In this document: piece by piece, positions 31,225-39,114 of the stretch
Layout of the letters: each line of letters starts with the position of its first letter
How positions within the stretch are numbered: the first letter of the stretch is position 1
The notes under the pieces: generated by a model
What the model was told of the DNA's origin: nothing
Database searches by the model: none
The model's input: the letters and a program-made list of their open reading frames with translations, nothing else
Translations under genes and position numbers: made by a program
NCBI GenBank assembly: GCA_051955985.1
Contig: JBQCGD010000036.1
Coordinates: forward strand, 4,306-68,305
Direction of reading: 5' to 3'
Length of the DNA stretch: 64,000 nt
DNA from: Phycisphaerae bacterium
GTDB lineage: Bacteria > Planctomycetota > Phycisphaerae > WQYP01

Positions 31225-31268
31225 TTTACAGGGGCGTCAGCGCGCTTTAATTTAACAGCACCACATCC
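31225..31268 (+). promoter_or_regulatory. Sigma70-like promoter followed by CCACATCC at the predicted +1
   Basis: TTTACA-17 bp-TAATTT-7 bp-CCACATCC. Confidence 0.5.
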
Positions 31269-31305
31269 ACCTATCTCGCTTCTTCCAATCATTTGAGGGT
31301 CCGTC

Positions 31306-31761
31306 ATGGCTGATTCGAGCAAGAAAACTGCCGTCGTGGCTGTGGTTGCGCTGTTGCTGGCCGCCGGCGCTGTCCTGGTCTACAACTCCCGGGGCACAAC
31401 ACCACGCGCCAGCGGTCTCGGCTACTTCGTCGATGATGCAACAGGCCAGGAAACCACACGCTCCGTCAAGGACATTCCGCCCGTCTCCGAAAACGGAAAA
31501 ACCCTCGTCCGCGAAGTGAAATACAGCCTCAACGGCAAACCAAAGGCCGCCTATTACTACAAATTCACCGACGCCATGAAAAAGAAAATCGAGGATGTCA
31601 TCGCTTCCGGAAAAGACATCGGCGACATGGAGATCGGCTCCGGCCAGTTGGTGCGCTCTCCCGCGCCCAACAGCAAATGGGTCGCCGCCGGAAGCGACGA
31701 GGGCCAGGCCATCATGCAAATTGATCTTTCCCAGGGAAAAATCGAAATGCTTCAGCCCTGA
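31306..31761 (+). CDS. Single-pass membrane-anchored protein, paralog A of the pilin-partner family
   Basis: N-terminal TM helix; shares TG.E..R.V.D.PP, YY.KFT..MK.K.ED, G.LVR.P and WV.A.S.EG..I with 34394-34861. Confidence 0.85.
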   Translation: MADSSKKTAVVAVVALLLAAGAVLVYNSRGTTPRASGLGYFVDDATGQETTRSVKDIPPVSENGKTLVREVKYSLNGKPKAAYYYKFTDAMKKKIEDVIASGKDIGDMEIGSGQLVRSPAPNSKWVAAGSDEGQAIMQIDLSQGKIEMLQP

Positions 31762-31805
31762 TCGCTTTCCCTCAACCCCTCCTCCCCTCAACAGCCCCAA
31801 ACGGA

Positions 31806-31840
31806 AAACGCCGCAGCTCGAAAAAAGCTGCGGCGTTCTC
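31806..31840. terminator. Probable bidirectional terminator between convergent genes
   Basis: AACGCCGCAGC / GCTGCGGCGTT stem flanked by A-rich and T-rich tracts. Confidence 0.7.
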
Positions 31841-31865
31841 TTGCGCTTTTGATGGATCAGCCCCC

Positions 31866-32909
31866 TCAATACTGCTCTTGCAGATAGATCAGCACGTCCT
31901 GCGTCAGCAGGTTCGGCTGCTCAACGTTTCCGGTCCCAAGTTTCTTCTGCGTGAACAAGCCGTTCAAGGTCCACGGCATCGTGTTGAACTTCGACACATG
32001 CCCGTCAAAGAAGGCCATGTTCGTGTCTCCGTCCACCCCGCCGTTCGTCGGATCGCCATGGTTCCCACGCAACCGCAGGTGACGCGGGGGAATGTCCGTC
32101 ATCTTGGTGTCCCAGATGATCTCCGTCGCTTCAACCACCATCACCATGCGACTCTGGTTCATTACGAAATTCATCTTCCGCCGGTAATCAACGGAAGTGG
32201 AAACCTTGTCGTTCGGCGCAGATTGTGGTTTGTCAAAGGCTACAAATGGCGTCGCACCAGCGTTTTTCGAACCACCTGAGCTGCCGAGCTTGTTGCCGCT
32301 GCTCATATTATGCGCATTGAGCTCGTACCACGTCGCTACCGAGAAGTTCCCCGGTGTTCCCAGGGGGCCGGACCATCCGAGAGGCTCGATAATCCCTTTC
32401 TGCAGCACTGGATCGCGAGGGCCGATGGTACCCACCGCTCCATTCGTCTGTAACCCGTCCGGATTGAACAATTCCAATTGGCAGTCAGGGCAGAAAAACG
32501 CGCTTCGTCCAGACGGTGTGCCCACGTTCCCATTCGGCTGCATATCATTCCCAGCAGAGACGAATCCTTGCTTAGCCAGTTCGTTGGTCCAAAAGAAGCC
32601 CTGAGGCACGTCGGAAAACGCGTTATTACCCGCCACGAATTCTGGAATGCACGCATCGTCAAAAGCGGCCCCATAGCTGATCACCCCCTGCGCGATGCCC
32701 CGCATATTGGCCGCGCATTTCGCGATACGTGCCTGCTCGCGGGCCTTCCCCAGCGACGGCAGCAGAATCGCGATCAATAGCGCGATAATCGCTACTACCA
32801 CTAGCAGCTCAATCAACGTAAACCCGCTCCGCCTGCGCATCATGCTCCCATCCAAAAACGTCCTCACCCTTGCGCGTGCCCCACTTGCCCGCATCGATTC
32901 CACTTTCAT
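31866..32909 (-). CDS. Prepilin-type N-terminal cleavage/methylation protein 1 with an H-X9-DG-like C-terminal motif (DUF1559-like)
   Basis: [45 protein letters not shown] and [23 protein letters not shown]. Confidence 0.92.
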
Positions 32910-33199
32910 GAGAATTTCTCCAAATGAGCCTCATCCTCGCGATAAACCGCGGACGTTCCGCGGCCGATCGCCTCCTCGCGCACCTAAATGCGCGGCAGAA
33001 CTCTCTTCATGTGCCCGCGCCGCCAGTGGGCCTCATGGAAATTGGCTCACCACCGGACGCGCACCGACTCCCCGGCGACCGCAACACGCACCGCGTTCGC
33101 AAAAAGAGCCTCTCAGCCGTTGATGCGACAACTCACGCTGACTGCCTGGATGTGTAAGATGAGGCCTGGATGAAGGGCCTCGTTGGATGTGGCAACTTC

Positions 33200-37633: not shown

Positions 37634-37697
37634 ACTATGGCCAACCCTGCCCTATCCTATCGCCGCCCCCGCCCTTCTGCATGCCGCATCCCCCGCG

Positions 37698-37737
37698 CAA
37701 AAAAACAGGCGGGCACACCCAAAGATGTGCCCGCCCG
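37698..37737 (-). terminator. Intrinsic terminator after pilin-like gene 3
   Basis: GGCGGGCACA / TGTGCCCGCC stem with an A-run on the plus strand. Confidence 0.75.
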
Positions 37738-37767
37738 AAAATCCAAGCCGCTCAGGGCCGCTCAAGA

Positions 37768-38736
37768 TCAGTGCTGTTCCTGCAGGTAGAACAACGTCTC
37801 TTCCACCGGCGAATACATCGTCTTGTTCTTCACGTACGAATAGCCGTTCGAATTCCCCGAACGATTCGGATTCAGCGTGTACGGCGTCGTCGGATACTTC
37901 GACACGTGCCCGTCGAAAAACGCAAAGTTCGTGTACCCGTCGATCCCGCTGTTCAGCGAGTCGCCATGCCGGCCGGCAAGCCGCTCCGCCTTCGAACTGC
38001 CCTGGCCCCCGTCCGACGGCGTGTTCTGGTTGTCAAACTGGTCGTAGTTCCCTTCCACCACCATCACAAACGCGCTCGGCTGCTTGATCATGTTGATCGT
38101 GCGATTGTAATTGGGATCAATGAAACCGTTCGCGTTGTTGTAATACACAAACGGCGTCGCCCCGCCCGAGCTCGTCCCCTGGGACGAACCCAGCGTGTTC
38201 CCGCTGCTGATGTTGTGCATCGTGATTTCGTACCACGTGTAAATGTCCACGTCCCCCACCGTGTTCGAACCGCCGTTGCTCCCCGTCGAGTGCTTGGCGT
38301 ACATCTTGTTCACCATCGACCGCGGCGTCGATGGCGTGGCGTTCGCCTGCTGCAGGATCCCGTCCGGACAGTAAAACACCCCGCGCGGAATCGCGTTCGG
38401 ACCGCCGCCCGGGCTCACATTGTTCGCACTGGGCAGATACCCCTGCTTCGCCATTTCCGTCGCCCAGTAAAAACCGTTGTCGTACCCCCCGAGCCCCGCC
38501 TTCACCAGCCCCATGATCATGTGCTGATTGTTCTGATCGACGTACATCAAATGCGCCGTCGCAATCTGCTTCATGTTCGCCGCGCACTTCGCTGTGTTCG
38601 CCTGCTCACGCGCTTTCCCCAGCGACGGCAGCAAAATCGCAATCAACACCGCGATGATCGCCACCACCACCAGCAACTCGATCAGTGTAAAACCCTGCCG
38701 GCGAACACCGGCCGCCTTCAATCGTTGACCAACCAT
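37768..38736 (-). CDS. Prepilin-type N-terminal cleavage/methylation protein 3 with an H-X9-DG-like motif
   Basis: [44 protein letters not shown] and [31 protein letters not shown]. Confidence 0.92.
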
Positions 38737-39001
38737 GAAAACTCCTCAATCCTCAAAATGAAAACCAAACACACCTTTTGCGTCACCCAACGCAGGCAAC
38801 AATGCAACCACCGGCGATCCAGAGAAATTCCGAAACGCCTTCACAACTGCGGCTGAGATTCAGGGACGGTTTGGATGGATGGACCGGGAAGGTGCACGCA
38901 GCCCGGGGATGTGGGAGTAAACCATCTGCCTGACCAACGCCACGAGCGTAACCCGCTGGCCCCGCAATGAGACAGGTTCGGTCCAGTTGGTTAGCCCGCT
39001 G

Positions 39002-39035
39002 ATCATATCCTTTTTGACAACCCATTGTCAAAAAG
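39002..39035 (-). promoter_or_regulatory. Sigma70-like promoter overlapped by a perfect inverted repeat (operator candidate)
   Basis: Minus strand TTGACA-18 bp-TATGAT; CTTTTTGACAA-CCCA-TTGTCAAAAAG at 39010-39035. Confidence 0.65.
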
Positions 39036-39114
39036 TTTCAACACCCCCAAATAGAAATCGCAACGCCGTAAAAATCCAGCACTTGCGCTACAAACCCGCA
39101 GTCGCGCACCCACC

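Follow-up and report, generated by a model that had tools for sequence, protein, structure and literature searches.

Small membrane proteins encoded beside pilin-like genes in Phycisphaerae: candidate private partners of pilin-like proteins

The stretch of DNA analyzed here, 64,000 nucleotides from a Phycisphaerae bacterium (contig JBQCGD010000036.1, positions 4,306 to 68,305; the window), contains three genes for pilin-like proteins, pilins 1 to 3, and two for small membrane proteins of an unnamed family, partners A and B. In this and other genomes, genes of the partner family lie beside pilin-like genes far more often than expected, the two proteins diversify together, a few natural fusions join them, and sugar-related genes are among their neighbors. 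Our best explanation overall, to which we give somewhat better than an even chance, is that a partner is the private co-subunit, or at least an interactor, of one pilin-like protein. Such pairs make a very large family of orphan genes accessible to testing.

The six open reading frames (ORFs) of interest lie between proA (29496-30854) and a gene of glycoside hydrolase (GH) family 43 (39115-40257; PF04616, E = 5e-38). Pilin 1 (31866-32909, minus strand, ORF start at 32909), pilin 2 (33461-34369, minus) and pilin 3 (37768-38736, minus) are prepilin-type proteins that align over their whole length, with identities of 40% and 45% to pilin 1 and invariant blocks that include FDGHV. Each carries the class III signal G-F-T-L-I-E followed by a hydrophobic helix, which places them in the type IV pilin/pseudopilin superfamily. 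All three match PF07963 (E = 1e-8, 1.2e-7 and 3.1e-8 for pilins 1, 2 and 3) and score 28.7, 29.4 and 31.8 bits against TIGR02532, with a cut-off of 16.3. An alternative start of pilin 1 at an MM pair about 22 codons in would leave a short leader before GFTLIE. Partner B (34394-34861, minus, 155 aa) ends 24 nt before the start of pilin 2, the downstream gene of this two-gene unit. Partner A (31306-31761, plus, 151 aa) is convergent with pilin 1, the two stop codons being 104 nt apart. Pilin 3 is apparently monocistronic and has no partner of its own. A sequence-only reading of this DNA had described three paralogous pilin-like genes with class III signals, together with two single-helix paralogs of about 150 aa lacking a lipobox cysteine, one 24 bp upstream of pilin 2 and the other convergent with pilin 1. 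That observation is correct in every detail that can be checked, since coordinates, alignments and domain matches agree.

Partners A and B are 35% identical (BLASTP E = 1e-27). As read from the translations, both lack cysteine and have a single hydrophobic helix near the N-terminus, preceded by a cytoplasmic tail of about 10 residues. Neither matches a Pfam or NCBIfam model, and no family in those collections is matched by more than one of 150 partner homologs. PDB sequences gave no match at E ≤ 1. The family is therefore as unrecognized as the sequence-only reading held it to be, and every source name that we saw for the homologs is 'hypothetical protein'. A profile built from five paralogs finds 1798 clusters (E ≤ 0.001) in a collection of 1.84 billion representatives, and for 364 clusters the match is at E ≤ 1e-10. 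A five-row partner alignment had no match in genome contigs, and partner B alone found only chance matches of 22-29 residues, in gut and rumen bacteria, among genome and metagenome contigs. Conservation is concentrated in the periplasmic part and the helix is variable. The consensus contains the motifs F.DE.TG, PPL.G..GKPT.VRA, KYT.EAK and G.LVR.P..GS.W, with an invariant Trp. Many members of the family have a pair of cysteines in the domain, which fits an extracytoplasmic location. Orthologs of partner B at 68-81% identity share the same start Met. Contigs carrying partner B orthologs and contigs carrying pilin 2 homologs agree in length in five cases (1611, 12383, 83435, 97273 and 99707), a hint that both genes may lie on them.

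An AlphaFold2 model of partner B (mean pLDDT 93.4, pTM 0.76) has a helix at residues 2-28 followed by a compact domain at 37-153 with five to six strands and three helices. Foldseek gave no match to the model at E ≤ 0.001 (best E = 0.32). When it was compared with 48,161 chains using VIA-align the best Z was 2.7 and no chain reached 5. In the literature outside subscription journals we found no paper that describes the partner family or pilin-partner pairs. The family appears to be undescribed, and its fold is possibly new.

The partner was found at E ≤ 1e-5 in 71 of the 251 genomes of our class sample. By family, these are 26 of 31 genomes in f1, 31 of 38 in f6, four of five in f14, two of four in f11, two of 13 in f12, two of 23 in f13 and one of 11 in f7. 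None was found at that threshold in f2 (36 genomes), f3 (18), f102 (15), f104 (11) or f4 (10). In the phylum sample at least eight of 301 genomes have a partner, a lower bound because only 12 candidates were scored per genome. In the genomes sampled the family is concentrated in two families of Phycisphaerae. A metagenomic member (P0048, 282 aa) has two tandem partner domains behind a single membrane helix, and one partner copy in an array of three cassettes (G010:C34:57689-58123; L087) has a single in-frame TGA. We rejected P0074 (1133 aa, 13 matching stretches) as a repeat protein that matches a short motif only, and six apparent fusions (P0033, P0068, P0081, P0113, P0114 and P0129), whose long N-termini we read as over-extended.

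In the genome from which the window comes, a first search that used partner B as query found five partner paralogs, all of them directly beside a prepilin gene. They occur as pilin-partner-pilin on contig C70, as pilin-partner on C117 and C172, and in the two arrangements of the window. A sixth copy (C167), found with the wider profile, has a pilin gene 1.2 kb away with a LacI gene in between. A first survey covered 60 regions with 66 partner genes. Eighteen of these follow a prepilin gene on the same strand at a gap of 27-250 nt, three lie immediately upstream of one, one is fused, and seven have a prepilin gene 0.3-1.6 kb away; 21 are directly upstream of ribBA and 16 are in other contexts. 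The number within 300 nt of a prepilin gene is 21 of 66, compared with about 3% expected by chance from 1335 TIGR02532 hits in about 117 Mb (the 31 f1 genomes). Within f1, 15 of the 50 counted copies are adjacent to a prepilin gene, with a naive binomial probability of 1e-11 that is inflated by related genomes and tandem arrays, which are not independent. Adjacency recurs across f1, where it involves five or more partner clades, and also in f6, f12, f13 and f25. A second survey of 20 further regions, mostly from f6, contained 21 partner-domain ORFs, of which six are adjacent to a pilin gene, two are long fused ORFs and 13 have no pilin gene within about 2.4 kb. The enrichment beside pilin-like genes that would be expected of dedicated partners is thus present; at the same time one third of the copies adjoin ribBA or other housekeeping genes, and the partner family is not exclusive to pilins. 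The ribBA-linked copies of f1 occur once per genome, 19-300 nt upstream on the same strand or overlapping the called ribBA start. This genome has none; a divergent version was sought in the ribBA gap and not found. The corresponding slot (C62) is filled by another gene.

Partners and neighboring pilins have diversified in parallel. In a quick tree the ribBA-linked partners form one short-branched group and the pilin-linked partners several long-branched groups, and clusters of the globular parts of the neighboring pilins match the partner groups. Matching groups are C172 with L069, L073 and L098 (four genera); L078 with L087; L063, L064 and L066; the subfamily of the window; and L082, L096, L099 and L101, a group that has retained the gene order partner - XylR-like regulator - pilin. 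Over 33 pairs the Spearman correlation between partner similarity and pilin similarity is 0.23 for all comparisons and 0.74 within genomes, and in both cases the value was reached by none of 2000 shuffles. Pilin 1 is most similar to the pilin on C117 (44.5% identity), and the quick tree places partner A as sister of the partner on that contig. Since each is closest to its C117 counterpart, the two were copied as a unit, with one gene later inverted.

Fusions join the two proteins directly. In G038 an 852-aa protein (L119 461-3016, plus strand) comprises a signal peptide, a DUF3352 region (PF11832, E = 1e-7), an H-X9-DG-type domain that has no cleavage site and scores above the PF07596 cut-off (26.4 bits), a linker of about 20 residues, and a partner domain without its helix at residues 725-852 (domain E = 1e-32). 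The full architecture is present in two metagenomic clusters, and about 117 of the 120 relatives listed end after the pilin-like domain. G402 (f14; L139 3615-5000, minus) has the same arrangement in a frame of about 1009 aa. Adjacency above chance, matching clades, duplication as a pair and natural fusions all support the cognate pilin-partner pairs proposed in the sequence-only reading, and we regard the gene pairing as genuine.

A number of observations weigh against private pairing. The 21 f1 copies directly upstream of ribBA form a slow orthologous clade (L068, L070-L072, L074, L075, L080, L081, L083, L085, L088-L090, L092, L095, L097, L100, L102-L104 and L122). Six f6 copies adjoin an hldE-like gene (PfkB + CTP_transf_like; L118, L141, L145, L146, L153 and L157), and three copies in f7 and f14 lie just after an S49 peptidase/NfeD gene (L113, L154 and L156). 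Three pilin-rich genomes have no partner at E ≤ 1e-5 (G011, with 77 prepilin hits; G017, with 33; G337, with 38). Within the pilin subfamily of the window itself, the C157 and C170 pilins and pilin 3 have no adjoining partner. The 966-aa secreted protein of G521 (L140 1039-3936, plus) has a helix-less partner domain preceded by about 830 residues of unknown type, with no pilin-like part and no Pfam hit, and the DUF3352/H-X9-DG ortholog encoded in the P0317 genome lacks both a partner domain and an adjoining partner gene. Because G038 and G402 are fused but these two differ, the evidence from fusions is real, rare and not uniform. The partner tree comes from a quick search only. Finally, RNA-library contigs from one study, which derive from a strain 95-99% identical to the window, bridge the partner B/pilin 2 junction in two runs (34308-34517 and 34320-34519); they agree with a two-gene unit, but are no proof of a single transcript and may contain DNA.

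The copies beside ribBA, hldE-like or S49 peptidase genes, a third of the total and with no pilin, favor an alternative with no physical link between the proteins, as do the pilin-rich genomes that lack a partner and the fusion that lacks a pilin-like part. The partner would then have an envelope function of its own, upkeep for example, and be co-regulated with the pilins or hitch-hike with them in variable sugar-use islands. This fits poorly with adjacency at some ten times the background rate, seen across several independent clades and in five or more families, with partner and pilin clades that match even within one genome, and with two fusions that join exactly the partner and pilin-like domains. 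We regard it as unlikely, although it survives best among the alternatives.

The pilins of the window resemble the H-X9-DG/DUF1559 families (PF07596, TIGR04294) in having a class III signal with a conserved K-C-x-x-N segment after it, another conserved Cys further on and DG[HS]V at the C-terminus, and in the many paralogs per genome; here there are 64 prepilin hits, or 64-65 prepilin genes in 5.8 Mb. They differ in falling below the thresholds of both models. Pilin 1 scores 17.1 bits against PF07596 (SBP_bac_10; cut-off 23.3) in an alignment restricted to profile positions 2-32. At E ≤ 0.1 PF07596 matches neither pilin 2 nor pilin 3, and TIGR04294 matches none of the three. The spacing from the invariant His to DG is 17 residues in all three, not 9. 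Their globular parts form a separate subfamily with eight members in this genome (three in the window, on contig C36; two on C70; one each on C117, C157 and C170), five of which touch a partner gene. Among 93 homologs of pilin 2, 29 match PF07596 at E ≤ 0.01, so that the subfamily borders DUF1559, and three match TIGR04294; database names for these homologs are 'prepilin-type processing-associated H-X9-DG protein' or 'type II secretion system protein'. Since the curated models do not reach their thresholds and the His-DG spacing is 17, we file the pilins as a divergent offshoot beside H-X9-DG/DUF1559. They are not major pseudopilins of the GspG type by TIGR01710, against which they score 34.6-38.9 bits (cut-off 88.85) with only the first 52-57 profile positions matching; in the pilins, matches to the GspG and ComGC models are confined to the first 50-60 residues. 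One study describes DUF1559 as a large family of unknown function and as the largest paralog group of Planctopirus limnophila, with 68 genes of which two are essential (PMC10632474).

No pilus ATPase, platform protein or prepilin peptidase is encoded in the window, and the need for such functions in trans, already pointed out from the sequence, can be met within the genome, where we find two Peptidase_A24, 17 T2SSE, 16 T2SSF-domain and three secretin matches elsewhere. With so many machines like the type II secretion system (T2SS) in the genome, the partner could be a handling factor that holds the pseudopilin-like protein before assembly, blocks untimely polymerization or couples it to a T2SS-like platform. 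The bitopic proteins GspL/GspM and PilN/PilO are reported to contact pilins, and they share the architecture of the partner: a small protein anchored in the inner membrane by one helix, with a short tail on one side and a small periplasmic alpha/beta domain on the other. A general role of this kind would also suit the conserved single-copy version that each lineage keeps beside housekeeping genes. Unlike the partners, however, GspL/GspM and PilN/PilO are encoded in machine operons, once per machine, whereas partners adjoin individual pilin-like genes and multiply with them, and there is no similarity in sequence or among the listed folds. GspM/PilN/PilO-type chains do not appear among the listed structural matches of the partner model, and with no listed solved chain above Z 2.7 their ferredoxin-like periplasmic fold is unsupported by these comparisons. 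In the regions fetched, no partner gene was next to a gene for an ATPase or a platform protein. Co-diversification with pilin heads and permanent fusions fit a subunit better than a transient factor, and we consider a handling factor improbable.

A pilin that works together with the product of a second gene has a parallel in Geobacter sulfurreducens, where according to one report the major pilin is a heterodimer of PilA-N and PilA-C encoded by two genes (PMC11046646). The proposed pair would likewise be one working subunit made from a pilin and a second gene product. The Geobacter protein is a split pilin in which PilA-C supplies the missing globular domain, whereas the pilin of the window keeps its own head of about 250 residues, and the partner brings a membrane helix of its own together with an unrelated domain for which no fold match is listed.

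If the partner is a private co-subunit, the likeliest mechanism would be as follows. The partner would be a bitopic inner-membrane protein, with a short cytoplasmic tail, one helix and a periplasmic domain of about 120 residues. This domain would bind the globular head of the cognate H-X9-DG-type pseudopilin-like protein, so that the two form a membrane-anchored heterodimer. The pilin half would be processed by a prepilin peptidase and possibly handled by T2SS-like machines, both encoded elsewhere in the genome. The pair would act in the periplasm within sugar-regulated loci, in the capture, hand-over or sensing of glycans. What the data show are the protein families, their pairing and joint diversification, the fusions and the sugar-related neighbors; the physical contact, its stoichiometry, the location and the role in glycan handling are proposals.

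The one pointer toward a role in surface binding or uptake is the sugar-related neighborhood. LacI regulators lie near pairs in L073, L107 and L115, and XylR-like regulators (Peripla_BP_3 + AraC HTH) near partners in L079, L082, L084, L091, L094, L096 and L101. In L082, L084, L096 and L101 a prepilin gene is 0.7-1.6 kb from the XylR-linked partner, and the pilins of L082, L096 and L101 fall in one conserved cluster together with that of L099. Other neighbors of pairs include GH2, two GH18, GH28, two GH95, an alpha-L-fucosidase, an alginate-lyase-like protein and a sugar transporter of the major facilitator superfamily. In this genome the C117 cassette is near UxuA and GH115. The pilin-partner-pilin cassette on C70 (G000 C70, 11060-15877; L168 2061-6878) has genes for an extracytoplasmic function (ECF) sigma factor and a FecR-type anti-sigma factor directly upstream on the same strand, and the anti-sigma factor bears a concanavalin-like (lectin-like) Laminin_G_3 domain. 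Some pairs sit between unrelated housekeeping genes (alaS, mutY-like, lipA-like), and because of these the link to sugars is a tendency and not a rule. Gene clusters for carbohydrate-active enzymes in Planctomycetota are described in one study as functionally uncharacterized (PMC11131199).

These neighbors raise the alternative that the pair is a periplasmic sensor, with the pilin-like head as glycan receptor and the partner passing on its state through the membrane to an adjoining regulator. A partner clade of 10 members adjoins an XylR-like regulator, several of them just downstream on the same strand and with a conserved pilin nearby; several pairs are flanked by LacI genes, and the sigma factor and lectin-type anti-sigma factor precede the C70 cassette. 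The cytoplasmic tail of the window copies is too short for an obvious output, most pairs have no directly adjoining regulator, and regulators of the LacI and XylR types are usually sensors of cytoplasmic sugars. We think a sensor quite unlikely.

In a bolder version of the private co-subunit, the partner would be a new periplasmic fold dedicated to H-X9-DG proteins, and the heterodimer a glycan-binding unit for uptake or sensing of polysaccharides without a TonB-dependent receptor. This we hold to be a long shot. If true, the largest family of orphan genes in the phylum would gain a first partner and a first function. The partner suits experiment, being specific and co-diversifying with its pilin, with a small, confidently modeled domain, natural fusions and sugar regulators nearby.

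The sixth ORF of interest (35366-37633, minus) encodes a 755-aa metallophosphoesterase-like protein with degenerate metal-binding motifs. It has no Pfam or NCBIfam match at E ≤ 0.1, PF00149 included, and its nearest Atlas clusters are Planctomycetota Metallophos (+CBM9_1) proteins (score 0.98). At the motif positions it has GN and GETD, where the ortholog in G015, which matches PF00149 (E = 6e-11), has GD and GNHD; the G005 and G010 orthologs are likewise degenerate. Descent from calcineurin-like metallophosphoesterases is supported, and the earlier label of pseudo-phosphoesterase is fair.

Orthologs of the 755-aa gene are present in 12 of 40 relatives searched. Searches of four ortholog loci (G001, G005, G010 and G015; 13-20 kb each) by tblastn with the pilins and partners of the window gave no match. 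In G001, from the same genus, the order MCP-u195-755-aa is kept without pilin 3, GH43, cheW or other cassettes. The 755-aa gene is a neighbor and not a component of the pilin-partner module, contrary to the membership first assigned to it. Positions 40452-41039 of the window (minus) encode a secreted protein of 195 aa that matches neither Pfam nor NCBIfam, and a protein 69% identical is encoded beside the G001 755-aa gene.

Terminator-like hairpins on the minus strand follow pilin 2 (33365-33396, 14 pairs), the 755-aa ORF (35208-35228) and pilin 3 (37706-37737, 14 pairs and a T run, upstream of the 755-aa ORF). Promoter-like sites, all on the minus strand and consensus matches only, lie upstream of pilin 1 (33200-33227) and of partner B (35250-35277), each with 10 of 12 hexamer matches and a TG extension, and upstream of pilin 3 (39002-39031), with 11 of 12 matches. 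Shuffled sequences contain at least as many of these sites in total, so we give weight only to the two long hairpins. That all six genes, the pseudo-phosphoesterase included, form one envelope system, as the sequence-only reading had it, would fit their position as neighbors, mostly on one strand, and the predicted extracytoplasmic location of all products. It is very improbable, however, and contradicted by the strong hairpins after pilins 2 and 3, the promoter-like site before each unit, and 755-aa orthologs in G001, G005, G010 and G015 with no pilin or partner within 5-10 kb.

As part of the private co-subunit explanation, and jointly with it at slightly better than even chance, we see the stretch as independent cassettes among backbone genes: pilin 3 alone, partner B with pilin 2, and pilin 1 with the inverted partner A. 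The GH43 gene adjoins pilin 3. The G+C content of the pilin and partner genes is 0.56-0.58, compared with 0.63-0.71 in flanking genes, which fits later insertion of cassettes. GC skew is strongly negative across 26000-44000 of the window (-0.12 to -0.51). An Rfam scan of 30500-39500 gave no match, and the conserved pilin coding blocks were the sole result of a repeat search. The RNA-library contigs cover most of the 755-aa ORF together with pilin 3 and the 3' end of pilin 2; the region 31200-33311, with partner A and pilin 1, has no cover, which says nothing about expression of either gene. In DNA runs labeled as rhizosphere metagenomes, among which may be the source sample itself, 87-94% of the sampled words of the stretch are present.

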